A stretch of DNA of 64,000 nt from a virus (taxonomy: Duplodnaviria > Caudoviricetes). Location: the IMG/VR virus record IMGVR_UViG_2690315746_000001, positions 21,703 through 85,702 of that record; one strand, 5' to 3'. The notes below the pieces were generated by a model. It was not told the origin of the DNA. It ran no database searches and saw only the letters and a program-made list of their open reading frames with translations. Shown piece after piece: positions 27,903-46,518 of this stretch. Every line of letters starts with the position of its first letter. Position 1 is the first letter of the stretch. The position numbers and the translations under genes were made by a program.

Positions 27903-27903
27903 G

Positions 27904-28875: not shown

Positions 28876-29009
28876 TGAGTAGAAAGGAGGTTAGGTTGGA
28901 CTAGGGGTTCGGGCAGGGGGCGATAGTCCCCACTATGCCCGGACTATGCCTTAGGTCTGACCTGCCTCTGACTACCCCACCATATACGAATATGGTGCCA
29001 ACCTAAGGG

Positions 29010-29849
29010 ATGAAGACAATGGCCGTTCGCACCGCTAACCCTGCCCTGACCTCTGACGCTGTTGCTAAGATCGGGTTCGACGCCCTGGTGGGCGCTGAGA
29101 ACTACAAAATCCACGCCTACAGCGCCTTTACCCTGCTATTCATGATGAATAGTGGTGTGGACCCGAAGCGGCTTCGGGCTAACCTCGCGGTGCGCGCCGC
29201 AGAGACGGGCGTTATCGCCGAAAATACCTGGCAGTCCTACGTCAAGGGCGTGGAGACGGCAGCCGACAAGTTCTCGACGCACCTGGCGTCGGACCCCGAG
29301 TTCCTGACCATACGGGATATGGGGCCGGAGGATGCGGTCGAGGCGGTGCGCCGGCTGTATGAGGCGGTCAACGTGGTGTCCGGGTCGGACATCCGGGAGT
29401 GGTCCAAGCTCGAAGGTTTCGAGCCCCTGGACAAGGCCGGGCTCAAGGCCAAGCGGGCGGCGGAAGCCAAGGCGCGCAAGCTCGCCGCTCAGAAGGCGGA
29501 AGCCGATGCGTTCTTCGCCAAGGCCCCTTGGGCCGGTGCGGAGGCGGAAGCCGGTGCGGGCGAGGCGGCCCCGGCGGACCCGATGGCGGCCCTGGCTGCC
29601 CTCCTCTCCACCCTGGACGAGGCATCCACCCTCAAGGCACTAGAGGCGGTCAACGCCCGGCTCGCGACCATGGCGAAGGCCAAGGCGGCGGCCCCGGCCC
29701 CCACCGTCGCCCCGGTCCTGGCGGACGACGCCACGCCGCACCCGCTTTCGGCCCTTGGCCGGGTCGTGCCGGCGAAGCTCAAGGGCGATGCCCTGGACAG
29801 CGCCGCGATGGCGGCCAAGCCCCCGGTGCGCCCGAACAAGGCGGCCTAG
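29010..29849 (+). CDS. Hypothetical early protein
   Basis: 279 aa, flanked by motif B at 28980 and 29866; distinct codon usage. Confidence 0.75.
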   Translation: MKTMAVRTANPALTSDAVAKIGFDALVGAENYKIHAYSAFTLLFMMNSGVDPKRLRANLAVRAAETGVIAENTWQSYVKGVETAADKFSTHLASDPEFLTIRDMGPEDAVEAVRRLYEAVNVVSGSDIREWSKLEGFEPLDKAGLKAKRAAEAKARKLAAQKAEADAFFAKAPWAGAEAEAGAGEAAPADPMAALAALLSTLDEASTLKALEAVNARLATMAKAKAAAPAPTVAPVLADDATPHPLSALGRVVPAKLKGDALDSAAMAAKPPVRPNKAA

Positions 29850-30052
29850 GGCCCCGCACCGGGCGCCATATTCGAATATGGCGCCCAACCCCGCCAGGGC
29901 CCGCCAGGGCCGGCCCTGGCCCCCGTCCAGCCCCTCGCGCCTACCGGCGCGCCCATCGCCGCCCACGGGCCGCCTGGGCGCCCCTGTATGCGTGCCCGGT
30001 GCGCGTACCTGCGCCGGTCCCCTCCACCATATCCGAATATGGGAGCCACGAG

Positions 30053-30427
30053 ATGGCCCACGCCAATCCCGAGTTCGCGCTCGCCTGCCGCGCGCACCGT
30101 GATCCGCCGCTGCGCCACCAGACGCCGCCGCCCGCGACCCTGGGCCAGCTTCGCGCCCGGATGCGCCAGATCGGCGAGCTGATCGACATCGGCTATCCGG
30201 TCGCGCCCGATGAACGCGAGGCATATCGGATATGGCTCCAGGTGCGGCGCCAGGATCGCCGGCAGGCCGCGCGCGAGGCTCAGATCCGCGACGCCACCGC
30301 CGAGCCACGCGGCGGGATGCACGGCGCCGATAAGCGCGGTGAGCGGTTCGCCGAGCCCAAGCGCCGGCTGCCGGCCGACGTGCAGGCCGGCCGCGTGAAG
30401 CTCCGGCGCGGCACGCTCACGCGATGA
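30053..30427 (+). CDS. Hypothetical protein
   Basis: SD GGGAG, MAHANPEFALACRAH..., preceded by motif B 30027. Confidence 0.55.
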   Translation: MAHANPEFALACRAHRDPPLRHQTPPPATLGQLRARMRQIGELIDIGYPVAPDEREAYRIWLQVRRQDRRQAAREAQIRDATAEPRGGMHGADKRGERFAEPKRRLPADVQAGRVKLRRGTLTR

Positions 30428-30589
30428 TCGTGGGTCGAACGCGGAGGCGGCCGACGCCGCCACCACACTGGTTCTGGGCGATCGGCCCACCATGACCCGC
30501 ACCGGCTTTGCGGTCCCGGTGCGGGGCCACGATCCGTGGTGGGCCGGGCTTTGGGTCCCGGCCGCCATATCGAATATGGGAGACGCGCG

Positions 30590-30679
30590 ATGCAGTTCTG
30601 GTTCTGGTTCATGGCCTGGTTGGGCGCCTGGTGCGCGCTCGCGGAGTGGCTGCTTCCGGCCGTGCCGGGGTCGTTCTGA
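30590..30679 (+). CDS. 29-aa Trp-rich hydrophobic peptide
   Basis: SD GGGAG; MQFWFWFMAWLGAWCALAEWLLPAVPGSF. Confidence 0.45.
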   Translation: MQFWFWFMAWLGAWCALAEWLLPAVPGSF

Positions 30680-30711
30680 GCCCGGGGCCCTCTGTACGTT
30701 TCGTGCATGAA

Positions 30712-30779
30712 CCACTACACTCGCGTAGTGGGAGGCCGTAGTGGGTTGCGCCAGGCTGGTAGTGGGATTTCGTAGTGGG
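30712..30779 (+). repeat. Four GTAGTGGG direct repeats plus one inverted copy
   Basis: 30725, 30738, 30759, 30772 (spacing 13/21/13); CCACTAC at 30712. Confidence 0.85.
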
Positions 30780-30874
30780 TCGCGTGATGTCGGCCGGTGT
30801 GAATTGCCGCGCGCCGCCGCTAAGTACCTCTCTTTCTTCTTCTTTCTCCTCCCTAGCTGGGATTGGGATAGAAA

Positions 30875-30973
30875 GTAGTGGTCAACAACCTCAAATCGCT
30901 GTTAGGGGGAACTCGTACATTCCGGGAATGTACAAGTTATATTAAGGAGAAATGGGGGGTTGTTGACCACTAC
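30875..30973. repeat. Concentric nested inverted repeats centred on 30924
   Basis: Outer GTAGTGGTCAACAACC / GGTTGTTGACCACTAC; inner GTACATTCC-G-GGAATGTAC. Confidence 0.9.
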
Positions 30974-31033
30974 CCTCATCCCCGCCGCGCCTGCCCGCCT
31001 TCTGTTGTCCGTTTCGTACCGACTGAGGAGACC

Positions 31034-31639
31034 ATGAAACGCCTCGACGACCTGCCCCGCCACCTCCGGTCCAAGATCCGCCTGGAGCCGGCCGACGCAC
31101 CGGAGACCGAAGCGTGCTGGATCTGGACGGGCTCGGCCCAGAAGCCGCGCCGGCGCCTGCGCCCGTATGCGCCGATCGAGAACGAGAACCCCCGCGTGCG
31201 CCCGCGCCACTTCGCCGGGAGCTTCGTGAACGACCGCGAGACGCCCATGGTGCGCGATCCCAGCCTCGGCTACGCCGTCGCCGCGCACCGGGTGACGTAT
31301 GCGGCTGCGACCGACCGCACGACCGCGAGCCTGCCGCGCCTGTCGCGCTGCTCCTGCGATCGGTGCGTGAGCCCGCACCACGTCCACGAGCTTGACGAGG
31401 TGTCGCCCCGTTCGCGTGGCCGCACCCGCGGAGGCATCGTCGCCCCCGAGCCCGAGGTCAACGGCGCCCCGGTGCCCAGTGCCAAGACCTGGGATCTCCT
31501 CACCGCCGAGGACGGGCCCATGATCGAGGTGGGCGTGGATGCCGCCTGTGCTGAAGTGGGCCTGCCTCCGGGCTCGATCACGCCCGCGATGTGGGACCGC
31601 TTCGTGAAGTGGTCGCTCGCGCGCGACGGGGCCGGCTGA
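31034..31639 (+). CDS. His-Cys-box / HNH-like nuclease (possibly degenerate)
   Basis: SD GAGGAG; CWIWTG ... AHRVTY ... RCSCDRCVSPHHV. Confidence 0.7.
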   Translation: MKRLDDLPRHLRSKIRLEPADAPETEACWIWTGSAQKPRRRLRPYAPIENENPRVRPRHFAGSFVNDRETPMVRDPSLGYAVAAHRVTYAAATDRTTASLPRLSRCSCDRCVSPHHVHELDEVSPRSRGRTRGGIVAPEPEVNGAPVPSAKTWDLLTAEDGPMIEVGVDAACAEVGLPPGSITPAMWDRFVKWSLARDGAG

Positions 31640-32026
31640 CCCGGCCATATCCGATATGGCTTGGCCGCGTAACGCTGCGGTAATCTTCAACCACGGCGTG
31701 AGCCGCCCGCCCGGTACGAAGCGGACACCAACCCCGATCGCGGGTGTCCGCCTCCTGACCCAAACGATGAATGATTGGTGAATGGGCAGGCCGAAAACGG
31801 CCGCAGGTCTGGTGAATAAGTGTTCATGGGACTGTGCATGTGTCCCACAAAGGCACACATATCTCCGAACGACCGCGGGCTGCCGCGCACACCGGCCCCT
31901 GGTATCCGTACAGCCGCGGATGTACGGTTCGTGCAGAAAGTTGCGCTGAACCACTACGTTCGGGTTGCGTACCCATCCAGATATGGGTATGTCCGCCACC
32001 TCCCCAGCAAGCAGAGGAGCAATCGA

Positions 32027-32443
32027 ATGGCGGACAGCCATGTCGACCGCCTGCGCGCCATCTACGATGCGCTCGCGACCGCGGCGCCCGGGATCTCCCA
32101 CGACGAGTACCGGGCGTTCCTGCACGTCGCCGACCACCCGGGCGCGAGCCAGCGCGAGGTGCAGGACGCCCTCGGCATCCCGCAGTCGAGCGCGAGCCGG
32201 CACCTGGCCAACCTCAACGGATCGGGCTTCGGCCTGGTCGATGCGGAAGCCTGCCTCGGCAAGCGCACCAATCTCCGGCTGTCGCCCAAGGGCCGGCAGC
32301 TGCTCGCCCAGCTGGCGCTGATCCTGGGGTGCTTCGTGGCCGCCCACTGCAGCTTGCTCGACGACATCGACTGCAGCACGCCGTCGCCCCCGGGCTACGA
32401 CCGCTGCGCCGACCCGGCGACCTTCTCCTGCGACCTGAGCTGA
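32027..32443 (+). CDS. MarR-like winged-helix regulator with Cys-rich tail
   Basis: SD GAGGAG; HPGASQREVQDALGIPQSSASRHLANL...LRLSPKGR. Confidence 0.8.
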   Translation: MADSHVDRLRAIYDALATAAPGISHDEYRAFLHVADHPGASQREVQDALGIPQSSASRHLANLNGSGFGLVDAEACLGKRTNLRLSPKGRQLLAQLALILGCFVAAHCSLLDDIDCSTPSPPGYDRCADPATFSCDLS

Positions 32444-32618
32444 GCCAGGTCATCCACAACCGCGACGCAACCCAGGGTGCCCTCGCCCCGTCGTTGACGT
32501 AAACCAGAACGAAATGAGAACATCCGCGGCAACAACCCGTTGTCGGCCCGGGTGTGTCGCAACCAGGCGCCCGGCCCTCGCTGGCCGGCGGCCATATCCA
32601 ATATGATGGGGTCTCGAG

Positions 32619-32990
32619 ATGACGACGCCGAGCGTGAACAGCATCCTCACCGGCATGGCCGACACGCTCGGCGTCCCAGCGCGGTGGACGAAGGGCTTCA
32701 TGGCTCGCGACGCCGAGGGCCACCAGGTCGAGCCAACGAGCCCGCAGGCCGCCTGCTGGTGCATCTACGGCTCGATGGAGCTGGAGCTGGTCCGCCAGGG
32801 CGCCCCAGACGGCCTGCGGGTCACGGTCGAGGACGTGCTGCTCGACGTGGCGCGCGAGGAGCTGGATCGGCCGGCCCTGATGGAAGGCGGGCTCAGCCTC
32901 ATCAACGACAGCCGCTACACCACGCACGAGGAGATGTGCGACCTGATCCAGCGCGGCATCCGCCGCGCTGCCACCGGCACTCCGAGCTAG
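32619..32990 (+). CDS. Conserved phage protein (DUF6197-like)
   Basis: WTKG..ARD...ACWCIYGS...INDS..TTHEE pattern. Confidence 0.6.
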   Translation: MTTPSVNSILTGMADTLGVPARWTKGFMARDAEGHQVEPTSPQAACWCIYGSMELELVRQGAPDGLRVTVEDVLLDVAREELDRPALMEGGLSLINDSRYTTHEEMCDLIQRGIRRAATGTPS

Positions 32991-33763
32991 ACCTCGGCCA
33001 TGGCCGACTTGAACGCCTTCCGGCGCACCAGCATCGCCGGCCAGATGTGCTCCAGGTGCTCGAGCAGGGCCTCGGGGTTGATCACGTCGACCCGCGCGAC
33101 GTCGCGCCGGATGAGGCCGCGGGTCTCGAGCCTGGCGAGCATCTCGGTGATGGAAGGCCGCCGCGCGCCCATGCGCTTGGCGATGAACGGCTGCGAGAAG
33201 GGCAGGGTCTTCTCGTTCGACACGTACCAGGCCCGCGTCAGGAACGAGATCAGCCTGTCCTCGGTCGCGAGGGCAACCGAGCCGCCCATCACCTCCCAGG
33301 CCTCCGTGAGCGCCAGGTCCGCGTACCGGCCGATGATCGCCCGCGACTTCGGGCACTCGTCCAGCAGCCGGCGCGCCGCCTGCGTGCTGCACTGGAAGGC
33401 CGGCGCGTCCAGCTCGACGACCGCCTGGTAGTTGCTCGGCACCTCGGAGAGCAGGGCAGGGAAGCCCACGATGTCCTCATCCCCGCACATCGCCGACTGG
33501 ATCGCCTGCTTCTTCCAGTCCGAGACGGGGGACACCAGGATGGACACCAAGCCGTCGACCGGGAAGTAGATCAGCGACGGGCGAACGCCCGCATGTATAA
33601 TAAGCTGACCGGACTTTAGATGTACGCGCTCAATAAGATCAGCCCAGTCTTTGTTGACGCTTATCAGGGCCTGTAGAATAATATTGGTCCGGCCAGATAT
33701 GTTGTACTTCTGTGCAAATTTGGTCATCATCTTGAGCCCCAGTGTAGGCTGCCTGCGCACCAC
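32987..33763 (-). CDS. Crp/Fnr-family transcriptional regulator
   Basis: IYFPVDGLVSI cNMP-like domain, EDRLISFL, FSQPFIAKRMGARRPSITEML HTH; AT-rich 5' end; start likely 33730/33727. Confidence 0.88.
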   Translation of the reverse strand: MVRRQPTLGLKMMTKFAQKYNISGRTNIILQALISVNKDWADLIERVHLKSGQLIIHAGVRPSLIYFPVDGLVSILVSPVSDWKKQAIQSAMCGDEDIVGFPALLSEVPSNYQAVVELDAPAFQCSTQAARRLLDECPKSRAIIGRYADLALTEAWEVMGGSVALATEDRLISFLTRAWYVSNEKTLPFSQPFIAKRMGARRPSITEMLARLETRGLIRRDVARVDVINPEALLEHLEHIWPAMLVRRKAFKSAMAEV

Positions 33764-34288
33764 CCCAGGGGCCGCGCTAGACAGTCATTCAAATCCTCGG
33801 TGTAGTTGCATTCGTCATATCCAATATGGCCGAGACGGGTGGTGGTTCAGACGCGGGGCGCATTCTGGGTCCCTGATCTTTGTCCGACACGGTGCGTTCG
33901 CACTCTGCCGAGTATCGCTAGTACGAGCCGTACACAACCCCAGTTGTCAAGCGGCTGTGCCGTCGAACTAGGGTGATTCGCTGAAAAATCATTCAGGCAC
34001 CTACTGCAAAGAGGCGCCTGTGCCAACACACCAGGCCATGTGCCTGGGCTGTGCCTGGGCATCATTGGATGTCCGATCCGTACAACTTTTCCACTAGCGT
34101 CGTTGTAACCAAAGGGTTAAATGGAGCCCTACCACATGCGCCAGTCACCGGTGACGCCACAGCAAGAGGCCAATCTGCTCCTGATCGCCGACCAGGAACG
34201 CCGTCGAAAGGAGCGGGAGGCCCAGGCCGCCCAGCCCTTTCGCCGTGTCCGTGCCTGATTGTCCGAACCGTACCGAGGAGGCGACATC

Positions 34289-34573
34289 ATGTTCCAGCTC
34301 AGCGCCACGCCGGCCATCTACCGCCCGGACGGGTTCGAGTTTCAGCCGCTCGACCCGGACAAGATCGTGAAGCGCACCAGCGCCACGACCATGCACGAGA
34401 TGCGCGAGGCCCTCGACGCCTTCGTCGAGGAGCTGCCCGGCACCAAGAGCTTCATCGTGTTCGGCCACTGGCCGCGCGTCGCCGGCAAGCCGCCGCGCGG
34501 GTTCAAGGCCGCGTGCGACCGCAACGAGTTCACCCGCCATGTGAAGCGCGAGCACACGCGGACCGGGGACTGA
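34289..34573 (+). CDS. Hypothetical protein
   Basis: SD GAGGAGG; MFQLSATPAIY; preceded by motif A 34260. Confidence 0.7.
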   Translation: MFQLSATPAIYRPDGFEFQPLDPDKIVKRTSATTMHEMREALDAFVEELPGTKSFIVFGHWPRVAGKPPRGFKAACDRNEFTRHVKREHTRTGD

Positions 34574-34652
34574 CCAGGGGTCGACCTCACAGCCGCCAGC
34601 CGTATTCGATATGGCTTCACGCTTGTTTCAATATTGAAGCGGGATTGAAACG

Positions 34653-34853
34653 ATGTCCCAGCCCGACCCCAAGCTTCTCACCACCGCGATCGACGTGATC
34701 GAGCGCTGGCACCGGACCTGCCGCCGCTACGACCTCGGCAACGCCAGCGGCGCCGACATGAGCCTCGCCCGCGAGGATGCCGACCGCGCGCTGAAGCGCG
34801 CCGCCGACGCGGGCCACGACATCACCGACCTGCGCAAGGAGAACGACCTGTGA
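34653..34853 (+). CDS. Hypothetical protein
   Basis: 66 aa after B+C module. Confidence 0.6.
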   Translation: MSQPDPKLLTTAIDVIERWHRTCRRYDLGNASGADMSLAREDADRALKRAADAGHDITDLRKENDL

Positions 34854-35056
34854 GCGCTGAGCACATCACCGTCAGCTTCAGCACCGGCAGCGCGGCCTTC
34901 GCCGACAGCCCGACCACCGAGATCGCCCGCATCCTGCGGGAGATCGCAGACCGCTTCGAGCAGGACGGCCTCTCCGGGGTCGCGATCTACGACCTCAACG
35001 GCAACTTCGTCGGCGAGGTCAGGGTCGCTGAGATCGAGGAGGAGAACGTCGAATGA
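34850..35056 (+). CDS. Hypothetical conserved phage protein
   Basis: AAF...EIARILREIAD...IYDLNGNFVGE; GTGA coupling. Confidence 0.7.
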   Translation: MSAEHITVSFSTGSAAFADSPTTEIARILREIADRFEQDGLSGVAIYDLNGNFVGEVRVAEIEEENVE

Positions 35057-35232
35057 GCCTCATCACCGGGACCTACCGCGGGGTGCGCAAGCGCCTCCGG
35101 GGCGAGACCGCGATGCTCGAGCCGCGCCCGGGCGGCTGGGCCGCCCAGTTCGATCGCCTCCACCACCGCGAAGCCCATGGCTGGTGGTTCTTCCCCGCCG
35201 ACGACTTCGAGGTCCACGTCCGCCAGCCATAA
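35053..35232 (+). CDS. Hypothetical 59-aa protein
   Basis: ATGA coupling with SD GGAG; MSLITGTYRG...GWWFFPADDFEV. Confidence 0.55.
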   Translation: MSLITGTYRGVRKRLRGETAMLEPRPGGWAAQFDRLHHREAHGWWFFPADDFEVHVRQP

Positions 35233-35276
35233 CCAATATGGCTGCCACGTTGTTTCAATATTGATACGAGGTTGAA

Positions 35277-35957
35277 ATGACCACTGCTCTCGCCATCCGC
35301 CCGATGCCGCCCGCCCAGGCCTGGGGCTACGCCGCGACCTGGGGCAGCTTCATGAAGAGCGGCGACCCGGGCGCCTGCATGTACGGGTTCGACGAGACCT
35401 TCGCCGTCCAGCACGAGGACCACCGCCAGGCCTGCCTGACCTGGGTCGAGGGCTGCCGCGCCGACGTGCGCCGCAACCCGACCGCGTTCGAGCACCGCGA
35501 GCTGGACCAGCTGACCGCCCTCGAGGGTGCGCTCCGCTCCGCGCCGACCGACGAGGAGGTCCGCGCCCGGCTCGCCAGCCTCGACGAGTTCACCACGGCC
35601 TACGCCCAGGCCGCGCTGTTCTTCGAGAACGACAACAGCGACGAAGAGACCGGCGGCGAGCCCTTCGACCGCAATTACGGGCTGGCCCACATCCACCCCA
35701 CCACCCTGGCGCGCATGGTCGACGACTGCCAGCGCTTCCAGCGCGACCACGCCGCGACCCTGGCGCGCTGCACCGGCGGTGGGCTCTCCCAGGCCGGCCA
35801 CGACTTCTGGCTCACCCGCAACCGGCACGGCACCGGGTTCTGGGACCGCGACGATCGCGTCTGGGACAAGGCCGCCCGCGACGAGCTGACCGCCAGCTCG
35901 CACCGCTGGGGCGAGATCGACCTCTACCTGGGCGACGACGGCAAGATCCACTCCTGA
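35277..35957 (+). CDS. Hypothetical conserved phage protein
   Basis: AGHDFWLTRNRHGTGFWDR motif; after B+C module. Confidence 0.75.
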   Translation: MTTALAIRPMPPAQAWGYAATWGSFMKSGDPGACMYGFDETFAVQHEDHRQACLTWVEGCRADVRRNPTAFEHRELDQLTALEGALRSAPTDEEVRARLASLDEFTTAYAQAALFFENDNSDEETGGEPFDRNYGLAHIHPTTLARMVDDCQRFQRDHAATLARCTGGGLSQAGHDFWLTRNRHGTGFWDRDDRVWDKAARDELTASSHRWGEIDLYLGDDGKIHS

Positions 35958-35971
35958 GAGGCATATCCGAT

Positions 35972-36430
35972 ATGGACAACTTCCTTCTCCCAGCTCAGCT
36001 GCAGATCTCGCTCGCTGAGCACGAGGCCCTCATCACGCTGCGCGACGCGCTGCGCGAGGAGCGACTGCCCAACGACTTCAAGTTCGACATGTCCTACGGC
36101 GCGTGCGGCGGTGACGGCTGCGGGACGGTCGGCTGCATCGGCGGCGCGGTGCGGCTCATGTGCCTGACCGGCAGCCAGCACGACATCGAGGGGCTCCATG
36201 AGCCTTATCGCCACGACGTCCGCGCGGCCTTCAGCTACGTCGAGCGGTCCGAGCTTCACCCGACCCTCGCCCCGCTCTACTACCCGCACCCGGAGGGCAG
36301 CTACCCCCGGCCGCCCTTCAACATCTACACGCAGGCCGACGCGGCCCGGGCGATCACCAACTACCTGACCACCGGCAAGCCGGATTGGCTCAACGCCGCC
36401 AGCGAGACGCTGAAGCCCTACCTGCAGTAA
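35972..36430 (+). CDS. Hypothetical protein
   Basis: FDM...CGTVGCIGG; ATG lies inside motif B. Confidence 0.7.
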   Translation: MDNFLLPAQLQISLAEHEALITLRDALREERLPNDFKFDMSYGACGGDGCGTVGCIGGAVRLMCLTGSQHDIEGLHEPYRHDVRAAFSYVERSELHPTLAPLYYPHPEGSYPRPPFNIYTQADAARAITNYLTTGKPDWLNAASETLKPYLQ

Positions 36431-36500
36431 CGACCCCGCACCGGGCGCTTTCGCGCGCCCGGATCACAGTGTTCGCTTCGTACATGAAAGCATATCCGAT

Positions 36501-37142
36501 ATGGCACGCACCCGCATCCTGGAGCGCGACGGCTTCCGCATGGGTCAGCGCGTCTTCCTCAAGCAGCCGACCATGGGCGGCACCGACGAGGACGACGAGG
36601 TCGTCTACCCGGCCGGCTCGCCGGGCCTGATCGCCGACATCGAGGACCTCGGCGGCAAGCAGGGCGTCAGCTTCACGGTCAGCATCGGGGAGATCACCAA
36701 CAACTTCGACCAGGGCGACGGCCCGATCGGCAACTTCCTGTCGGCCACGCCCGTGCTGCCGGCGTTCGCCACCCTGATCGGCCTGACCCCGAAGCAGGTC
36801 GCCGACACGATCTGCACCGCGGTCGAGGGCGGCATCAGCTACTGGGCCCGGGGCTTCCACCTCGTCTCGCCCAACGAGGCCGCGCTCAAGGAGCGGCCCT
36901 GGTACGCGAGCGCCGCGCTCTACGACGGCCCGTTCACCATCAAGGTCGTGCAGGTGGACGAGCACAAGGAGGGCGCCGGCTGCGACGTCTTCCTGACACC
37001 GGACAGCATCCGCCGCGGGCTCGCCTGGCTCGCCGCGAACAAGCCCGAGCGAATCGGCGAGATCATCGGTGAGACGGGCGACGCCTGCACCGCCGACGAC
37101 TTCATCCAGGCCTGCGTGTTCGGGGAGCTGATCTATGGCTGA
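36501..37142 (+). CDS. Hypothetical conserved phage protein
   Basis: TAVEGGISYWA...ADDFIQACVFGELIYG; ATG lies inside motif B. Confidence 0.75.
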   Translation: MARTRILERDGFRMGQRVFLKQPTMGGTDEDDEVVYPAGSPGLIADIEDLGGKQGVSFTVSIGEITNNFDQGDGPIGNFLSATPVLPAFATLIGLTPKQVADTICTAVEGGISYWARGFHLVSPNEAALKERPWYASAALYDGPFTIKVVQVDEHKEGAGCDVFLTPDSIRRGLAWLAANKPERIGEIIGETGDACTADDFIQACVFGELIYG

Positions 37143-37635: not shown

Positions 37636-37679
37636 CCCGAGCCCAGCCATATCCAATATGGCTGGGTTCCAGCCACCGC

Positions 37680-38341: not shown

Positions 38342-38642
38342 CCGCCGCAACGGGCCCGTGAAGCGGGCCGCGATCCGGCTGCTGGCGGAGGAGCGGCGCC
38401 TGCCGCTCGCCGCGGCGGCGCACCGCTACGCGATGATGCCGATCCGGGCAAAAGTGGCGCTGTGCCGGCGCGTCGAGGCGTCCGGTAAAAAGGAAAATTC
38501 GGCCTCCCGGAAGCCCGCGGCGGCAGCCAGATCAAATATGGCTTCGCCAACTCGTTGGTACGATTCTGGATCTGCATAGATGTCGCAGGTTCCATAAAGA
38601 TAATTATGCGCGGTGAGCGTGGCTTGCCATTTGCCAGGAGAG

Positions 38643-39819: not shown

Positions 39820-39856
39820 CAAAGGCCTCCCGACCGCCAAGTCGGGGGGCCTTTTG
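39820..39856. terminator. Hairpin/terminator upstream of Rep-like gene (candidate counter-transcript terminator)
   Basis: AAAGGCCTCCCGAC-cgccaa-GTCGGGGGGCCTTTT. Confidence 0.7.
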
Positions 39857-40108
39857 CGTTGTTCCTTAACCCTTCGGCGACGTTCTCCAGTGTCCCGGAA
39901 TCGGGACCTGCCACCTTGGCCCTAAGCGCCGTGGTTCGTCAATCGAGGGCCAGCAGCGCCCCACTACGTCCTCTCCGTACCCACTAGAGGCGAAACACAG
40001 GAGGAACACCCCCTTGCGTCCACTCTTATCACAATGTACGAAACGTACCAGGGAGGCCGCCGCAGGCATCCTCTGCGTCGAGCCACCACCAACACCCGGA
40101 GGGTGATC

Positions 40109-40195
40109 GTGAACCCGATGCAGGCTGCCCTCCTCGCCACGTTCCTCATCGGGACCCTCGTCGCGCTGGGCATCCGCGCGCGAACTCGCGTCTGA
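40109..40195 (+). CDS. 28-aa hydrophobic peptide
   Basis: SD GGAGGG; MNPMQAALLATFLIGTLVALGIRARTRV; between two motif A sites. Confidence 0.5.
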   Translation: MNPMQAALLATFLIGTLVALGIRARTRV

Positions 40196-40217
40196 ACCAG
40201 ATTGTACGGAGCGTACC

Positions 40218-40514
40218 GTGCGCAGTCATCACGACATCCTCATCGCTGCCGAGCGCGGGCTCGCCAGCGGCCACACATTTCTCACCTCCCTCATGACCGA
40301 GATCGGCGTCGAGCGCGCCGGCACGCCCGGCTTCCGCGAGCTGGACCAGGTCATGACCGAGCGGGTCAGCGACGCCTTCGCGGAGCTGTACCCGGACCAC
40401 GTCGGCGTCGGGCTCCCCCACGCCGTTCGTCGCGGCATCCGGGCGCTGGGCCTCACCGGCGCCGAGGTCTCTGCCGCCGTCGCCCGCCGGGCCGTCGAGA
40501 ATTGCCCGGCATGA
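40218..40514 (+). CDS. Hypothetical protein
   Basis: 98 aa; start abuts motif A 40203. Confidence 0.6.
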   Translation: MRSHHDILIAAERGLASGHTFLTSLMTEIGVERAGTPGFRELDQVMTERVSDAFAELYPDHVGVGLPHAVRRGIRALGLTGAEVSAAVARRAVENCPA

Positions 40515-40999
40515 CCGCCCTCAACCCCATCACCGCCCTGCGCCTGAAGCGCACGGCGTCTCGGAGAGCACCGCTCATGCCCGTTTCCCAGAAGCCGCGG
40601 ATGAAGAAGCGCGAGGCCACCGGCCCGGCGCCGTACACCCTCGCCGGCACCCTGTTCTACGGCTTCTACGAGCAGGCCGCGCTGCGTAAGGCCGCCGGCC
40701 CGTCCATGGAGGACATGTTCCGCCGCCAGCGCACCGGCATGCCGCGCACCCGCCGCGACCTCTCCGGCCGGACCTACCACCCATGCGCGGGCGCGGAGAG
40801 CCGCGAGGCCAAGCGCCGGGCCCGCCAGGGCGTCCACCACGCCCAGCACCCGACCGTGGTCGCACGGTTCGGCGAGCTGGACGCCCGGGCGCGCGAGGCC
40901 AAGGAGGCCATCGCTCGCGTCGAGGGCGTCGACCGCTCGATGAAGAGCCGGATCGGCGCCGTCGCCGGCAAGCTCCTCGGTCGCAAGGGTGCCGCGTGA
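40511..40999 (+). CDS. Hypothetical basic protein
   Basis: Coupled ORF; start 40511 or 40577. Confidence 0.55.
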   Translation: MTALNPITALRLKRTASRRAPLMPVSQKPRMKKREATGPAPYTLAGTLFYGFYEQAALRKAAGPSMEDMFRRQRTGMPRTRRDLSGRTYHPCAGAESREAKRRARQGVHHAQHPTVVARFGELDARAREAKEAIARVEGVDRSMKSRIGAVAGKLLGRKGAA

Positions 41000-41156
41000 A
41001 CCACGACCAGGAGAAGCTGCTCAAGCGCGCCCAGGACGCGCTCGTCCAGCTCAATCACGGCGCCTGCGATGACGCGGCCGGCGTGATCCACGACCTCATG
41101 AAGGAGGTCCGCCAGCTCCAGGACAAGCTGGAGCGCCTCGACGCGCCGGAGGTCGC

Positions 41157-41465
41157 ATGAAGCTCGCCGATCTCGACGCCGCGACCGCGCTCCAGCGCGA
41201 CCTGCAGCGCGCCCAGCACGACCTCGCCGAGCTGCAGAAGCTGGTCTGGTCCGACGAGGCCAAGCGGGCCCGGGCCGACAAGGGCCCGGACGAGGGCGTC
41301 AGCCTGTCGATCACCACCGTCCGGCTCGGCACCCTCTACCTGACGCTCGACCCGGACGACACGATCTTCCAGGCGATCGAGAACCGGCTCGAGATCCGCA
41401 TCCGCGAGGCGGCCGAGAAGCTCCGGCGGCTCGGCGTCGAGGTCCCGCAGGACGTCGCGGCATGA
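41157..41465 (+). CDS. Hypothetical protein
   Basis: 102 aa, ATGA coupling, SD GGAGG. Confidence 0.65.
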   Translation: MKLADLDAATALQRDLQRAQHDLAELQKLVWSDEAKRARADKGPDEGVSLSITTVRLGTLYLTLDPDDTIFQAIENRLEIRIREAAEKLRRLGVEVPQDVAA

Positions 41466-41653
41466 ACCAGGTCCTGCCCTGGCTGCCGTGGGTCTCGTTC
41501 GGCACCGCGACCGCCGCCCTGCTCCTGGCGCTCGTCGGGCTCGCATGCGGCGATCGCTCGGTGGCCGGCGAGCGCCTGCTCGCGGCCCTTCTCCTCGTCA
41601 GCGCCTGGCTCGCCGGCCTGGCGCTCATGCTGAACTTCTGCCCCCTCCCCTAA
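41462..41653 (+). CDS. Small two-TM membrane protein
   Basis: 63 aa with two hydrophobic stretches. Confidence 0.55.
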   Translation: MNQVLPWLPWVSFGTATAALLLALVGLACGDRSVAGERLLAALLLVSAWLAGLALMLNFCPLP

Positions 41654-41709
41654 CCCACTGCCACCCCGGCCATATCCGCTATGGCCGGGGCAACCCTCGA
41701 GGAACGACG

Positions 41710-41949
41710 ATGGCCTACCGCCTCCGGGTCGCTGACCCGCGCGACATCACCGGCGACCACATGCTCGACGTCGAGTACGGCGCCTATATCGGCCCCTCCG
41801 ACATGGCTGTCGGCTGGCCGGGCACGGTCACGATCGACATCTACTCCGCCGTCACCAAGCGCGGCGCCTGCGTGGTCGAGAAGCTCACGCAGCCGGAGCT
41901 GAACAAGCTCGAGGCCAGCATCGATGCCCGCCACGAATTCGACGACTGA
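41710..41949 (+). CDS. Hypothetical protein
   Basis: SD GAGGA after motif B 41670; MAYRLRVADPRD. Confidence 0.6.
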   Translation: MAYRLRVADPRDITGDHMLDVEYGAYIGPSDMAVGWPGTVTIDIYSAVTKRGACVVEKLTQPELNKLEASIDARHEFDD

Positions 41950-42121
41950 GCTGCCGGCCGTCCGGGTCCGCCTGGACGGCAAGACCCTGCGGGCGAAGTT
42001 CCCGCTCCCCAAGGCGCGCTGGCACGGCAAGTACCCGGGGATCGACGCGGTCGTGAAGGCCGCCTGGGAAGACGGCGTCCCGCAGCATTTCGCCATCCAC
42101 TACGTGCTCGAGGAGGAGTAA
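41924..42121 (+). CDS. Hypothetical protein
   Basis: 65 aa, good codon bias. Confidence 0.5.
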   Translation: MPATNSTTELPAVRVRLDGKTLRAKFPLPKARWHGKYPGIDAVVKAAWEDGVPQHFAIHYVLEEE

Positions 42122-42180
42122 GATGACCGTCTGTCCAGCCACCGCGAACCGCAACGCCAGCTACGAACGACGAGGGGGAT

Positions 42181-42429
42181 ATGGGTAAGCGTCGCACACC
42201 GCTTTGGGTCGACCGCGAGCGCACCCGCGTCGCGGCCGACATCCACGACCCGGCTGAGTGCCAGGCGCTGATCGACCGCCACAACCGGGACCTCGACATG
42301 CTGGTCGCCTCCGGCGCCACGCGTGAGGGTGCTCCCCGTCCGATGCAGCAGGCCCACTACTACCGCAGTCAGGCTCTCGCCACGCTCGAGGCCAGGATGC
42401 GCAAGCTGAGCACGCTCGTCACCCATTAA
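42181..42429 (+). CDS. Hypothetical protein
   Basis: 82 aa, SD GAGGGG. Confidence 0.55.
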   Translation: MGKRRTPLWVDRERTRVAADIHDPAECQALIDRHNRDLDMLVASGATREGAPRPMQQAHYYRSQALATLEARMRKLSTLVTH

Positions 42430-42526
42430 CTCTTCTGTAACAGTCTGACGCAGCCCGCGTTTGGACTTGTCTTTTACTCACTCTTAACTGTACGAAACGT
42501 ACAGCAACCCATAGAGGAACTACACC

Positions 42527-44662
42527 ATGCGTATGGTCCACGCCATCCAGGAGAACCACACCGAGGGCGCGCAGCAGGTCCAGCAGACCGGCGTCGGCGG
42601 TGACGCGAAGATCGTCTACGCCCTGCTCACCGGCATGGTCTCGGACAAGGTCGTCTACCCGATCCGCGAGGTCGCGACGAACGCCTGGGAGATCTCGCCG
42701 GCTGGCAAGCCGTTCGAGGTCGAGCTACCGACGCCCTTCAACCCGCAGTTCACGATCCGCGACTTCGGGCCGGGGCTGTCGCACCGCTTCATGATGAAGA
42801 GCTACGCCAAGATCGGCGAGAGCACCAAGGACGACGACGACGCCGCGATCGGCGGCTGGGGCTTCGGCTCTAAGAGCCCGCTCGCCTACCTGATGCGCTC
42901 GGACGGCGCCGGCGCCTTCACGGCCATCAGCCGCCACCGCGGCTTCCGCCGGGTCTACGTGATCGGCGTGTCCGAGCAGGGCAAGATCCAGATCCAGTTC
43001 ATGGGCGAGTGGCCGCTCGAGCCGGAGGATCGCGGCACCGGCCTCGAGGTCTCCTTCCCGGTCCGCGAGGACGACATCGAGCGCTTCCACGACCTCGCCA
43101 AGGAGGTCTACTGGAGCTTCGAGCCGAAGCCCGTCGTCACCCCGGCGATCGACTTCGGCAAGCCGCGCGTGCTCCACAGCGGCGACGGCTGGACGATCTA
43201 CGACGCCCAGACCGTACCGTTCTCCGGCCCGCAGCTCACCCTCGGCCCGGTGATGTACCCGATCGACCCCGACAATATGCCGGCGACGGAGATGCTCACC
43301 TCCGAGACCTGCATCGTGTTCAAGGCCGAGGTCGGCACCATCAGCGTGTCGTCGAGCCGCGAGAACCTGCAGTACGACGACCGCACCGCGCGCGGGCTCA
43401 AGGCGCTGTTCGACCACTACCGCGACGACTGGACGAAGGCGGCCCAGGCCTCGCTCGACGCCGAGCCCGACTACTTCGCGGCTCGCTGGAAGGTCTGGTC
43501 GATCGTCCAGACCCTCCCGGGCGACAGCTGGCAGATCGCCCGGCGCTTCAACTACCGCGGCTACGACTTCCACGGCGACCTCTTCCCGAACGGCTGGCGC
43601 GTGAAGGCGACGCGCTGGCCGGAGGTCCGCGGCCAGGTCTTCAACGCGCACCAGCCGGTGACCTTCCGCGCCGACTGGTCGATCAACCCGGGCGAGCTGA
43701 GCGGCCGGAAGGTCGTGATCCAGCACGGCTCGAGCCGCTCGCTCGAGCGCATCGAGGCCGCCGGCCTGCTCGACACCAAGTTCCTGTGGGTGCGCTGCAA
43801 GCGGCCGGACCTCGCCTACGCCCTCGAGCGGATGGGCAACCCCGAGTACATCGTCCTCGACGACATCAAGCTGCCGAAGGCGGTCCGGGGCCCGCGCGAG
43901 AAGCGGCCGGAGAGCGTGAAGCGGCGCAAGGTCATGGGCCTCGAGAAGCTCACCACCTGGCACGACCTAGTCGATCTCGACGACGAGCTGCTCTACGTCC
44001 GCATCACCGGCCGCGGGCGCAAGCTGACGCACATCCTCTCGTTCGACGGCGAGGAGGATCGTGAGTTCTGCGTTCGGCACACCGACGACCTCGCGAGCCT
44101 CCTCGGCACGATGCGGCGCCAGGGCCTCGCCGATGCGCTCGCCGACAGCCCGACCTGCATCGTGATCGCCGAGGACGAGACCCCGCAGCCGCACTGGATC
44201 GCGCTCGGCGATCACCTCGCCGAGATGCTCGACGCGGCGATCGACCCGACGCAGGTCGCGCCGGTGATCCCGTGGAGCTACAACAGCTTCCCGACGACCC
44301 TGCGCACCATGCAGGAGAAGCGGGTCGACCTCGGCTGCGCCCCGGCCGACCTGCGCGAGGTCTACTACGAGATGGTCGCGATGAGCCGGACGCGCGCCGA
44401 GCTGGATCGCGAGAGCACCAGCCACGACCACCTCGCGGCGGTCATGCTGAACCTCACCGGCACCGACCTCAAGACCGTCGCCAAGGACCCGACCCGGCCC
44501 ATCCGCGAGAAGTTCCGCGCAATCAATGAGCGGCTGCCGCTCCTCGAGACGATCGTGACGAACAGCACCTATCACGAATACGTCGGCGGCGGTAACGGGT
44601 ACAAGCTCGGCTCGAAGGGCCAGCGTCTACTGGATCATTACTTCCAGCTCGCCACGAAGTAG
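42527..44662 (+). CDS. rIIA: rIIA-like protein (GHKL ATPase N-terminus)
   Basis: IREVATNAWE, IRDFGPGL, ESTK, IGGWGFGSKSPLAY; paired with rIIB. Confidence 0.88.
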   Translation: MRMVHAIQENHTEGAQQVQQTGVGGDAKIVYALLTGMVSDKVVYPIREVATNAWEISPAGKPFEVELPTPFNPQFTIRDFGPGLSHRFMMKSYAKIGESTKDDDDAAIGGWGFGSKSPLAYLMRSDGAGAFTAISRHRGFRRVYVIGVSEQGKIQIQFMGEWPLEPEDRGTGLEVSFPVREDDIERFHDLAKEVYWSFEPKPVVTPAIDFGKPRVLHSGDGWTIYDAQTVPFSGPQLTLGPVMYPIDPDNMPATEMLTSETCIVFKAEVGTISVSSSRENLQYDDRTARGLKALFDHYRDDWTKAAQASLDAEPDYFAARWKVWSIVQTLPGDSWQIARRFNYRGYDFHGDLFPNGWRVKATRWPEVRGQVFNAHQPVTFRADWSINPGELSGRKVVIQHGSSRSLERIEAAGLLDTKFLWVRCKRPDLAYALERMGNPEYIVLDDIKLPKAVRGPREKRPESVKRRKVMGLEKLTTWHDLVDLDDELLYVRITGRGRKLTHILSFDGEEDREFCVRHTDDLASLLGTMRRQGLADALADSPTCIVIAEDETPQPHWIALGDHLAEMLDAAIDPTQVAPVIPWSYNSFPTTLRTMQEKRVDLGCAPADLREVYYEMVAMSRTRAELDRESTSHDHLAAVMLNLTGTDLKTVAKDPTRPIREKFRAINERLPLLETIVTNSTYHEYVGGGNGYKLGSKGQRLLDHYFQLATK

Positions 44663-44737
44663 TTACCACGCCCGTCTCACGGGACGGGCGTGTCTTCCGT
44701 CTATTGTCCGAAACGTACAACCATACAGGATATGGTC

Positions 44738-46462
44738 ATGTCGCGCCTCCCCCACACCATCTCGAACCAGAGCCTCACCTTCTTCGTGAAGGGCAAGCCC
44801 TACTCGCTGACCCGCGAGCACGAGCACTTCGAGGCCGCCAAGGCGCTGCTGCAGCAGCCCGGCGGCCACCCGGTCCAGAAGCTGGTCGACATGGTCGACG
44901 TCCGCCAGGCGCTGCTGCGCGACAGCTTCGGCGCGCTCCAGGTCATCGGCGCCGACCTGGTCTTCAAGGGCCAGGTGCTCAAGGGCCTCTGGGTCGACAA
45001 GATCAAGGCGTTCCGGGCCGCGGGCGAGCCCTTCGCGCCGCTGTTCAACGCCCTCGGGTCGCTGCTGCAGAACCCGACGCCGGAGGCGATCGAGCGCCTG
45101 CCGGTGTTCCTCGAGAAGTCGAACCTCGGCTTCCTCGAGGACGGCCGGTTCATCGCCTACAAGGCGGTCCGCGAGGACTACTTCGACGTCCACACCGGCC
45201 GCACGCACCGGAACATGGTCGGCGACACGCCGCACATGGACCGCGACAAGGTCAACGCGGACCCGAACGCCTGCTGCTCGACCGGGCTCCACGTCGGCAC
45301 GCCCGACTACGTCCAGAGCTTCTACGCCCACACCGCCCGCCGGGTCATGCTGATCGCCGTGTGGCCGCACGACGTGGTCTCGGTCCCGCACAGCTACGGC
45401 GGCACCAAGATGCGGATCTGCGCCTACGAGGTGATCGACGAGCTGGACGAGCAGTACGCCTCGACCATCCTCGGCCGCCCGGTCCTGACGCCGCGCTCGC
45501 AGCTGCCGGCGCCGGTCGTGGTGGAGGCCGCCCCCGCCCCGGCTGCCGCGACCTTCGACATCGACGAGGTCGAGGTCGGCGACGTGGTCAGCTACAGGGG
45601 CGACGCCGAGACCCCGGGCGGGAACTACACAGTCGTCGCGATCGACCCGGACGGTCACGAAGACCTGATGATCGCGACCGCAACCGGCCAGGCCTGGCTG
45701 CTCAACGACAACGTGGCTGGCATCGTGGAGCGCGCCCCGCGCGACGACGAGGACGAGCCGGACGGCTACACCCGGGACGAGCAGGACGAGCACTACGACG
45801 CCGTCAACGCCGAGATCGACGCGCAGTACCTGGCCGACCAGGTCGAGGTCGGCGACGTCGTCACGCTCACCGCGGATCCCGGCGCTCACCGCATGCAGGC
45901 CTGTCGCGCGGCCGGCAATTACAGCGTCCGTGCCGCCGCGGAGACCACCCTCCTGGTCGAGGACGCGACCGGCCGCTCCTGGGTGGAGCGCACCCGGGTC
46001 GTCGCCGCGACCCGCAACGGCGTCGACATCATGCCCTCGCCGACCGTCGAGGCCCCGCCGATCGGCGAGCGCCCGGCGCCCGCCCTCCTCGCCCAGGTCG
46101 GTGACCTGGTCACCACCTCCGAGGGCGGCTGGCCGCCGGCCGGCGTCTACCCGGTGATCCGGGTCGACGAGGGCCGCGAGTACCGCCTGACCGTCCAGAC
46201 CGAGCACGACGGCGAGCAGGGCGTGCGCAACTGCTACGTCGTCTCGTTCACGGCCCGGCCGTGGCTGCGCGCCGAGATCGGCGGCACCGTCGACCTGCGT
46301 GGCACCGGCGAGACCGGCCAGGCCTACCGCAACGGCGGTCGCGGCATCGAGGTCGTCGGCATGTTCCTGCACGCCAGCACCCCGCAGCTGCAGCTCCGCA
46401 CGATGGCGGGGCCGCAGTGGATCGACGCCACCCGCGTGACGGCCGCCTACCCGAAGGCCTGA
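44738..46462 (+). CDS. rIIB: rIIB-like protein with repetitive C-terminal extension
   Basis: EDGRFIAYKAVREDY, CSTGLHVG, PHDVVSVP, KMRICAYEV. Confidence 0.88.
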   Translation: MSRLPHTISNQSLTFFVKGKPYSLTREHEHFEAAKALLQQPGGHPVQKLVDMVDVRQALLRDSFGALQVIGADLVFKGQVLKGLWVDKIKAFRAAGEPFAPLFNALGSLLQNPTPEAIERLPVFLEKSNLGFLEDGRFIAYKAVREDYFDVHTGRTHRNMVGDTPHMDRDKVNADPNACCSTGLHVGTPDYVQSFYAHTARRVMLIAVWPHDVVSVPHSYGGTKMRICAYEVIDELDEQYASTILGRPVLTPRSQLPAPVVVEAAPAPAAATFDIDEVEVGDVVSYRGDAETPGGNYTVVAIDPDGHEDLMIATATGQAWLLNDNVAGIVERAPRDDEDEPDGYTRDEQDEHYDAVNAEIDAQYLADQVEVGDVVTLTADPGAHRMQACRAAGNYSVRAAAETTLLVEDATGRSWVERTRVVAATRNGVDIMPSPTVEAPPIGERPAPALLAQVGDLVTTSEGGWPPAGVYPVIRVDEGREYRLTVQTEHDGEQGVRNCYVVSFTARPWLRAEIGGTVDLRGTGETGQAYRNGGRGIEVVGMFLHASTPQLQLRTMAGPQWIDATRVTAAYPKA

Positions 46463-46518
46463 CCCACCCCGCCCCGCCAGATCCGATCTGGCGGGGCTCC
46501 ACCCGCAGGAGATCCACC

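Follow-up and report, generated by a model that had tools for sequence, protein, structure and literature searches.

A dispersed CCATAT/ATATGG palindrome, probably an operator in duplex DNA, in the early and accessory gene region of a Seuss/JWF-related siphophage

The window analysed here is a stretch of 64,000 nucleotides (nt), bases 21703-85702 of the 85,702-bp virus record IMGVR_UViG_2690315746_000001 (G+C 67%). The phage shows siphophage kinship: its major head protein has 54% identity with the counterpart in Caulobacter phage Seuss and 52% with the one in Achromobacter phage JWF, and its gene order agrees with Seuss. Leftward genes are structural (terminase, portal, major head protein and a tape measure of 2188 amino acids (aa)); rightward genes run, in order, from a primase-polymerase through ParA with a small partner and a long array of small genes to rIIA/rIIB and then to replication and nucleotide-metabolism genes. 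The small-gene array is punctuated by a palindrome, CCATAT-N3/4-ATATGG (motif B), interleaved with a second palindrome, motif A. An earlier reading of this DNA from its letters alone (the sequence-only reading) had listed 19 copies of motif B and explained them mainly as folded hairpins with co-varying stems. Here, we describe the copies of motif B in this phage and its relatives (Table 1), and present the evidence that it is a real regulatory element at gene boundaries and probably an operator read in duplex DNA, rather than a folded hairpin.

The window contains 6 exact matches to CCATAT-N3/4-ATATGG and 100 shuffles contain none, and CCATATCCGATATGG, with at most 3 mismatches, is found at 16 places (32 strand matches; 0.72 expected, shuffle maximum 3). 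Scanning the whole 85,702-bp genome with at most 2 arm mismatches and spacers of 2-5 nt gave 24 matches, namely 19 N3 sites (spacer of 3 nt), 3 N4 sites (spacer of 4 nt) and 2 weak ones whose spacer is 2 nt, which were dropped as chance matches. The 22 sites kept comprise the 19 noted earlier, every one of which does bear the motif, and three beyond the window, which begin at 12, 7104 and 10310 of the genome. As had also been seen, the copies at 28980, 29866 and 30027 have the N4 spacer, and every other copy is N3. A logo built from 59 N3 sites in four phages, leaving out one N3 site too close to a record end, gives as consensus the 17-bp palindrome G-CCATAT-C-N-G-ATATGG-C. The symmetry extends through the spacer, with C at -1 in 45/59 and G at +1 in 46/59 N3 sites; these conserved bases are unable to pair in a hairpin and thus point to the two-fold symmetry of a duplex site. 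The centre base follows no transcription direction (C 33, G 23, p = 0.23). Outside the 17 positions, none from -40 to +45 exceeds 0.34 bits, so no -35 or -10 element accompanies the motif.

Scans of 28000-47500 returned 3 promoter-like matches (1.5 expected) and 10 terminator-like matches, none of either kind over a motif B copy, and Rfam gave 0 matches at the gathering score across the whole window. The sequence-only reading had not recognised the motif as a described element, and our literature searches agree with it: four exact 15-mers were found in no paper, no such repeats were found described in the literature on Methylobacterium/Methylorubrum phages and Seussvirus, and a term search of the accessible text of the Seuss genome note returned a terminal repeat alone and no such repeats.

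Table 1. Copies of motif B and motif A in the window, with the genes of candidate binders and of p279 (window coordinates; N3 and N4 denote spacers of 3 and 4 nt; folding energies refer to the hairpin with its flanks).
Position	Strand	Feature	Spacer, core or stem	Gene context	Remarks
2379..2393		Motif B	N3	5 nt past stop of minor-tail gene 2399-2914 (-)	Orthologous copies in G001 and G004
28980..28995		Motif B	N4	14-23 nt upstream of p279 start	
29308..29322		Motif B		Within p279 gene, reads T-I-R-D-M	Same codons in all four phages
29861..29886	+	Motif B in GC hairpin	N4 core 29866-29881; GGGCG..CGCCC; -20.8 kcal/mol	Hairpin begins 11 nt past p279 stop, motif 16 nt past	Plain GC hairpin in relatives
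30027..30042		Motif B	N4	GG merges into Shine-Dalgarno GGGAG; ATG of conserved 124-aa gene (p124) 10 nt on	
30221..30235		Motif B, weaker copy		Within p124 gene, reads A-Y-R-I-W	Orthologous copies in G001 and G002
30565..30579		Motif B	ATATGGGAG	7 nt, then ATG of 29-codon hydrophobic open reading frame 30590-30679	
31645..31659		Motif B		5 nt past stop of 253-aa gene (p253)	
32592..32606		Motif B		12 nt upstream of DUF6197 start	Orthologous G001/G004 copy includes start codon
33815..33829		Motif B		Leader region of Crp-like gene, ~52 nt upstream of start	
34600..34614		Motif B		ATG 34653 is 38 nt downstream	Duplicated TTGTTTCAATATTGA region comes next
35227..35241		Motif B		Overlaps stop of 59-aa gene; ATG 35277 is 35 nt downstream	Same duplicated downstream region
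35961..35975		Motif B		ATG 35972 inside motif, sole possible start of 152-aa gene	
36490..36504		Motif B		ATG 36501 inside motif starts 213-aa gene	Motif A copy 5 nt upstream
37642..37666	+	Motif B in hairpin	Core 37647-37661; CCCAG..CTGGG; -22.7 kcal/mol	Hairpin begins 6 nt past stop of 166-aa gene, motif 11 nt past	
38527..38541		Motif B, degenerate copy		Ambiguous	Adjoins minus-strand terminator-like site 38515-38501
41664..41690	+	Motif B in hairpin	Core 41670-41684; CCCCGG..CCGGGG; -22.5 kcal/mol	Hairpin begins 10 nt past stop of 63-aa gene, motif 16 nt past	
44721..44735		Motif B		Own ATG in frame with rIIB	Abuts motif A copy 44705-44719
46471..46497	+	Motif B in hairpin, CCAGAT/ATCTGG variant	Core 46477-46491; GCCCCG..CGGGGC; -25.6 kcal/mol	Hairpin begins 8 nt past rIIB stop, motif 14 nt past	
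2927, 15342, 16622, 16678, 21766, 22495, 25222, 26182, 27084, 30693, 33920, 34070, 36470, 40035, 40203, 42489, 44705, 47101, 47484, 52498, 53348, 59222, 60621, 62114, others		Motif A	TGTACG-N3-CGTACA		
27240..28239	+	Partition module		ParA ATPase 27240-27902; 120-aa partner 27877-28239	Partner with ribbon-helix-helix-like C-terminus, rival candidate binder
29019..29849	+	p279		Conserved first gene of the motif B array	All-helical, no known fold
30878..31639	+	p253		Clade-specific, conserved Cys/His	Further candidate binder
32987..33763	-	Crp/FNR-family regulator, 258 aa			Leading candidate binder

An exact-match scan of viral contigs for motif B led to three multi-copy records: G001, a 55.8-kb piece; G002, 84 kb and collinear with this phage end to end; and G003, which duplicates the G002 sites at a constant offset. 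With at most 2 mismatches these hold 14, 9 and 8 copies, respectively, and a reversed-pattern control found 0 in each of the three. A search with p279 added G004:C20 (G004 below), an 84,253-bp, phage-sized contig in a Methylorubrum suomiense assembly, as well as a Methylobacterium jeotgali contig that shares 18.6 kb with G002 at 100% identity. Counted over four independent lineages, motif B is present in 22 copies in this phage, 15 in G001, 10 in G002 and 18 in G004:C20, and the early proteins of the four phages are 30-70% identical. Searches of viral, genome and metagenome contigs and of 401 host-family genomes, with alignments of p279 and of the Crp-like protein as queries, revealed no clade members beyond the same four lineages. 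Megablast of window 28000-38000 against a phage collection gave no match, and the sole addition from a second exact scan, with CCATATCGAATATGG, was a 48.5-kb record with two copies that is not a relative.

In the two host genomes searched, all perfect-arm sites (8/8 and 6/6) lie on the phage contig, so that motif B is phage-owned and not a host regulon; at the 18 host Crp/FNR paralogue loci examined, motif B clusters are absent and 5 isolated weak matches occur. The clade that has motif B is a small set of Seuss/JWF-related siphophages met in Methylobacterium and Methylorubrum genomes, where they probably persist as ParA-partitioned plasmid prophages. A plasmid-prophage or carrier lifestyle is suggested by ParA with its ribbon-helix-helix (RHH)-like partner, by the lack of any tyrosine integrase or protelomerase domain in searches of this phage, by the phage-sized Methylorubrum contig and by contigs from RNA libraries of a cultured organism that match the window at 100%.

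The case for a folded hairpin had rested on flanks that differ between copies and still remain complementary. The four flanks quoted in its support are indeed complementary, by 5, 5, 6 and 6 extra pairs, and a fifth such site lies at genome 7104, but co-varying stems are not a general property of the motif: flank extension by at least 5 pairs is found in 5/22 copies here and 1/43 in the relatives (1/18 in G004, 0/15 in G001, 0/10 in G002; control probability ~0.002). Covariation was counted over a 12-pair stem (6 flank and 6 core pairs) in 60 N3 sites from the four phages, with five N4 sites excluded. The score of 0.148 does not rise above that of shuffled data (0.132 +/- 0.013), as 57/500 shuffles were equal or higher, and paired cells amount to 69.9% against 68.1% in shuffles, a level reached by 28/500 of them. 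There is one double change among the six core pairs. The 360 arm pairs divide into 323 that match the consensus, 32 broken, 4 G.T and 1 compensated (at 46477), and mismatches that are broken rather than compensated indicate that the half-sites decay independently. The core alone folds as RNA with -0.2 to -5.1 kcal/mol, and with 8-nt flanks 17/22 sites reach -1.3 to -15.5 kcal/mol and five sites -20.8 to -25.6 kcal/mol. Broken pairs, the lack of excess covariation, the weak core and the symmetric spacer together refute the folded hairpin as a general rule.

The five copies with extended stems deserve a separate account. Each of them is found 11-16 nt past a stop codon. Downstream of the p279 stop, where GGGCG-[motif B]-CGCCC stands in this phage, the three relatives have GC-rich hairpins of differing sequence and no motif B; downstream of the rIIB stop, the hairpin is a plain GC one in G002 and bears motif B at its tip in this phage and in G004. 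Hairpins without motif B at the same positions show that hairpin and motif are separable, the GC flanks forming a separate class of post-gene stem-loops. As judged by comparing the four genomes, the complementary GC flanks at the five copies are therefore terminator-like post-gene hairpins carrying the palindrome at their tip and not a part of the motif. A palindromic operator nested in such hairpins can mimic covariation, which is a caution for the reading of motifs elsewhere.

The same copies invite the explanation that motif B is an intrinsic terminator or a hairpin at RNA 3' ends, or else a promoter of the phage N4 type, folded on extruded single strands. Five copies here and one in G004 (the latter folded within a 100-nt stretch only) sit in GC-rich stems 5-16 nt past stops, those of this phage at the folding energies given above, and a T-rich tail follows the copy at genome 7104, which lies at a convergent junction and is alone among the five extended copies in having one. 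Such stems are missing, however, in 17/22 copies here and 42/43 in the relatives, none of the terminator-like matches between 28000 and 47500 coincides with a copy, and plain GC hairpins take the same two positions in relatives. For the N4-type variant, no virion RNA polymerase is found among the Pfam matches of 56 open reading frames (ORFs), the 4079-aa ORF giving only CBM_4_9 over the 3001 residues scanned. We regard this explanation as extremely unlikely. As an observation apart, the hairpins at 29850-29890 and 46463-46500 are conserved in position in all of G001, G002 and G004 and differ in sequence, with pairing kept and no U tract.

The gene-boundary placement noted earlier is borne out: 19/22 copies have a start or stop codon at most 60 nt away, the copies at 29308 and 30221 are internal to genes, and the one at 38527 is ambiguous. 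Most copies mark, in transcribed DNA, the 5' ends of small genes that follow one another in the same direction, where they cover the start codon or the Shine-Dalgarno sequence, lie 12-40 nt upstream or follow the previous stop. Across the N3 and N4 sites of the four phages, a coding ATG is found within -8 to +45 at 39/65 sites, compared with 25% of random positions. The ATG is the motif's own (positions 12-14) in 23 of those 39, including the two starts inside the right arm, at 35961 and 36490, that had been reported before; in 4 it stands at +10, with the motif's GG opening the Shine-Dalgarno sequence. Copies that cover start codons must lie in transcribed DNA and cannot be activator sites upstream of a promoter. 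Rows with the motif's own ATG divide into 8 internal to longer genes and 16 others, the copy at genome 12 included in the latter. In several of the 16 a conserved N-terminus puts the true start 27-33 nt downstream.

All four phages retain the copy inside p279, although the middle residue of the encoded stretch varies between R, L, S and F, and the copy uses ATA and GAT, codons that end in A/T, whereas G+C at third codon positions (GC3) of the genome is above 0.85. Retention despite the residue change, with such codons, indicates selection on the nucleic acid. The N4 copies of this phage occupy positions held by N3 copies in the relatives, and the three may be weakened operators of the first two genes.

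Taken together, these observations favour motif B as a duplex-DNA operator read by a symmetric dimer encoded by the phage, a reading that we consider probable, in which binding, repression and the identity of the binder are inferred from sequence. It comes closest to the fallback that the sequence-only reading had allowed for, an ordinary duplex operator, although the copy number and the start-codon placement are unusual for one; of that reading as a whole, the regulatory element at gene boundaries stands and the folded hairpin falls. Placement at 5' ends in transcribed DNA suggests gene-by-gene repression. A dimer bound to copies inside early and accessory transcription units would repress the small genes one by one, blocking RNA polymerase at local promoters or acting as a roadblock in the fashion of stoperators. 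If the dimer were the Crp-like protein of the window, a small molecule sensed by its ligand-binding domain could release or impose the block.

This Crp/FNR-family regulator may bind motif B, and we put it forward tentatively, at somewhat less than even odds. Pfam assigns cNMP_binding and HTH_Crp_2 to the 258-aa protein, and a profile of the four orthologues matched 34 solved Crp/FNR chains with E down to 9e-10, as expected of a full-length family member. Orthologues occur in all four motif B phages (E 1e-43 to 1e-47) at 35-38% overall identity, with an invariant recognition helix, RRPS(I/V)TE, and a search of the phage collection (50,697 records, Seuss and JWF included) gave no match to the protein. 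It is favoured because it is a dimeric DNA binder by family, its helix is as invariant as the motif, and it occurs only alongside motif B. The regulators met in the Pfam scan were this protein and MarR-like, Xre-like and MucR-like ones; the MarR-like protein was rejected as a general binder, as tblastn at 1e-4 gave no match in G002, which has perfect copies.

Several observations weigh against the duplex operator or against its proposed binder. The three perfect-arm copies with a 4-nt spacer are easier to accommodate with a hairpin than with a rigid dimer, five strong-hairpin copies do exist in this phage, and the broken pairs are mostly outermost (14) or loop-adjacent (9), leaving a 4-5-bp stem in most copies. 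The region upstream of the Crp-like gene in this phage has three motif A copies and one motif B copy. The p253, p279, p124, DUF6197 and ParA-partner proteins are also conserved in the clade, which makes co-occurrence with the motif not specific to the Crp-like protein, and motif A, a second conserved palindrome, likewise requires a binder. Finally, the fixed register with start codons and Shine-Dalgarno sequences also suits a translational operator on mRNA.

Such an operator would be a short hairpin holding the AUG or part of the Shine-Dalgarno sequence, stabilised by a phage RNA-binding protein that shuts off early translation. Coat-protein and RegA-type repressors shut off translation via mRNA. 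The motif's own ATG opens the coding frame in 23/65 sites and is the sole possible start in 3/16 of the non-internal cases (window 35961, G001 50614 and G004 82505), with 2 more lacking a downstream alternative. Four sites and window 30565 read ATATGG(G)AG followed by ATG at +10, perfect arms are seen with either spacer, N3 or N4, a 5' leader probably includes the first copy, and p279 gives a feature match to the T4-type translational repressor family (0.84, below threshold, such matches being often due to chance). Against this stand the weak core hairpins, the lack of excess covariation and the 32 broken pairs to 1 compensated already described, a symmetric loop (C-N-G) with no strand bias, and copies past stops with no start downstream, such as 2379 and genome 7104. 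We consider control at the mRNA level unlikely.

Contigs from RNA libraries (runs X1-X4) match the window at 100% identity over much of 27500-47400. In X1 and X2, which derive from one sample, contigs start exactly at 28961, 19 nt upstream of the first copy, and in X2 they are preceded there by 15 adapter-like letters, which we take to be the end of an Illumina adapter. The shared contig start hints weakly that 28961 is the 5' end of the p279 transcript, which would place the first copy at +20 to +35. Contig depth is 126-182 over the DUF6197 and Crp-like genes and 0-7 in bins across 34140-35467 and 36132-38123, values that support no conclusion on expression, as contig depth cannot rank genes, the holes are uninformative and the library may contain DNA. 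A contig break at 29854, before the 29861 hairpin, may be an effect of the palindrome on assembly. All four runs additionally contain a high-depth contig joining two short GC-rich stretches, 42303-42320 and 27999-28024, with CTC between, probably a host transcript with chance similarity.

The neighbouring partition module offers another reading, in which the RHH partner of ParA would bind motif B as a centromere-like site, in the manner of type Ib partition, and double as a global repressor of the plasmid prophage. In RK2 and pSM19035, a centromere-binding protein doubles as global repressor. A partition-type ParA adjoins the 120-aa protein here, whose C-terminus gives weak matches to RHH antitoxins (E 0.01) and, as read from the alignment, has similar putative DNA-facing beta-strand residues in the four phages (K/R, Q, S/T). 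Each of these phages has its densest group of motif B copies in the neighbourhood of the par module, but at a varying distance (in G001, ~6 kb separates the first copy from the RHH gene). Searches for an integrase or protelomerase found neither, and one relative is the phage-sized contig in a bacterial assembly. The copies are nevertheless single and dispersed over 40 kb, with no array by parA and the first one 741 nt past the partner gene, they accompany the starts and stops of accessory and late genes, motif A and not motif B supplies the operator-like site before parA in all four phages, and the RHH assignment is weakly scored. We therefore judge a centromere role to be quite improbable.

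Further proteins of the region were considered as binders. The clade-specific p253 has the invariant pattern C..W.WT ... GY..A.RV.Y ... RC..D.CVSP.H, with H, N or C at the position of the first histidine, which to us is reminiscent of HNH or His-Me-finger proteins. It has no match in the phage collection and no Pfam match, PDB sequence searches with p253 and p124 gave none, and its model (predicted local distance difference test, pLDDT, 60) returned only non-significant fold matches to the SMAD MH1 and NFI DNA-binding domains (E >= 2.3). For p279, a PDB sequence search gave no match, and its model, with a mean pLDDT of 67, had no fold match at E <= 0.001. The divergent 121-aa gene at 28280-28645 (-) was ruled out as a repressor by its signal-peptide-like N-terminus. 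Its product is conserved, has two invariant cysteines and may be a secreted or periplasmic prophage product.

The sequence-only reading had also proposed that motif B marks recombination boundaries; short gene cassettes would then be swapped there between phages. Between the Crp-like gene and rIIA, most small genes are without a homologue in G002 or G004 and motif B copies persist, units of 1-3 genes are flanked by copies, and five copies are composite with hairpins. Compared with the three relatives, 5/38 nucleotide-homology ends fall at most 30 nt from a copy against 2.2 expected, so that some excess is there, but it is no higher than the 95th percentile of random draws (5), and it is expected in any case because the copies sit at gene starts. 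Further, 15-17 bp is short for homologous exchange, copies are kept within a conserved gene and in the late region, and no recombinase is tied to the motif. Recombination boundaries are thus a very unlikely explanation.

Motif A is the palindrome (T/G)GTACG-N3-CGTAC(A/C), present in 32 copies in this phage and in 11, 28 and 38 copies in the other three genomes. It often abuts or overlaps start codons (CGTACATG) and precedes terminase, primase, parA, p253, rIIA and replication genes. Its interleaving with motif B is fixed and gene-specific in the four phages, with motif B before p279, p124 and DUF6197 and motif A before the 105-aa gene (26209-26526), parA and p253. Variants of the palindrome are found in JWF (GGTTCG-N3-CGAACC type) and Seuss (TTTACC-N3-GGTAAA), where motif B gave 0 matches and 1 weak match, respectively; motif A is thus the older of the two, and motif B was added by this clade. 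Motif A resembles an ancestral element of the group that serves as global operator or promoter. A natural candidate for its binder is the Xre-type protein at 47692-48261, whose helix-turn-helix domain is homologous to Seuss gp077 (pairwise E 1e-13). In G004 (L121, 4959-5040 and 4316-4400), each of two motif B copies is directly followed by a further palindrome, GGATAGCTA-N5-TAGCTATCC, which resembles a third operator type in that phage.

A more far-reaching possibility, which we think unlikely as a whole, is that the A and B palindromes form a gene-by-gene silencing grid over the plasmid prophage, with a ligand-sensing Crp/FNR-type repressor on motif B, a weak mRNA hairpin masking the AUG, and portable terminator-operator units in the post-gene hairpins. 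If this were true, a small molecule would decide on the expression of accessory and early cassettes, and the terminator-operator units would let cassettes move between phages.

Dispersed repressor sites as such are already known. According to the accessible part of a study of Cluster A mycobacteriophages (PMC9283540), the stoperators of the L5 gp71 type are copies of one repressor site present >20 times per genome, at promoters and in short intergenic spaces of temperate phages, and are proposed to stop both initiation and elongation; they are asymmetric 13-mers, oriented with transcription and bound by a monomer that has a helix-turn-helix domain and a stoperator domain. As far as that part of the source allows the comparison, motif B is alike in its many dispersed copies (22 sites), in its intergenic or promoter placement and in belonging to a phage that is probably temperate. 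It differs in being a symmetric 15-17-bp palindrome without orientation bias, in its concentration in one arm, in the interleaving with motif A and in having a Crp/FNR-family protein as candidate binder. PeSL promoter-terminator cassettes of T4-type phages have been proposed as cassette-swapping elements (PMC2839356, PMC4122927), and to the extent covered by the accessible text they resemble motif B in that a conserved regulatory element delimits small, variable early genes of a plastic region and is joined, in some copies, to a stem-loop; motif B differs from them in that it has no promoter consensus, a stem-loop in 5/22 copies that is separable, and a non-significant breakpoint association.

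Like Crp/FNR operators, which are read by a homodimer, motif B has two inverted 5-bp half-sites, and a full-length family member is encoded beside its densest cluster. The consensus sites of the family are TTGAT-N4-ATCAA for FNR and TGTGA-N6-TCACA for CRP. The 3/22 copies with N4, which read CATAT-N4-ATATG, have the spacing of FNR sites, whereas 19/22 are 5-N3-5, one base shorter than the sites familiar in the family, and the half-site sequence differs from known ones. The helix RRPSITE likewise differs from the motifs RE..R or E..SR familiar in the family, and motif B on start codons suggests repression as opposed to classical Crp/FNR activation from -41.5 or -61.5. As in P1, RK2 and pSM19035, many copies of one operator would here be spread over a low-copy extrachromosomal element with ParA. 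The C1 operators of P1 are asymmetric, the omega sites of pSM19035 are heptad arrays and KorB of RK2 is a large ParB-type protein; unlike P1, omega and KorB sites, motif B copies are single palindromes, often over start codons. New here are the symmetry, the two interleaved classes, the start-codon placement, the hairpin nesting and the candidate Crp-type binder.

Very little work has been done on phages of methylotrophic alphaproteobacteria or on phage-plasmids from outside the enterobacteria, and the present comparison makes a regulatory code readable from four genomes, in which small early and accessory genes form a defined regulon, marked by a 17-bp palindrome confined to the clade, and an older, interleaved palindrome is common, in variant form, to Caulobacter and Achromobacter phages. 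If the Crp-like protein does bind motif B, a small-molecule sensor would gate a switch of the prophage, and the system would be a symmetric counterpart of the mycobacteriophage stoperator.

Three further features of the genome were noted. After two motif B copies, a leader is duplicated (34615-34655 and 35242-35279; CTTCACGCTTGTTTCAATATTGAAGCGGGATTGAAACGATG and CTGCCACGTTGTTTCAATATTGATACGAGGTTGAAATG) and has a palindrome of its own, TTCAATATTGAA. The tail-fibre-like ORF with the CBM_4_9 domain (window 1-1530 and genome 10993-23232 (-)) is, at 4079 aa, more than twice as long as its G001 and G002 homologues. Lastly, the divergent gap between the 121-aa gene and p279 contains an AT-rich island at 28740-28830 (AAATCCAAAAATTTTAGAAAGAGTATTTCG ... 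CACAGAAAAAAGGGGGG), which could be a promoter cluster or an origin.

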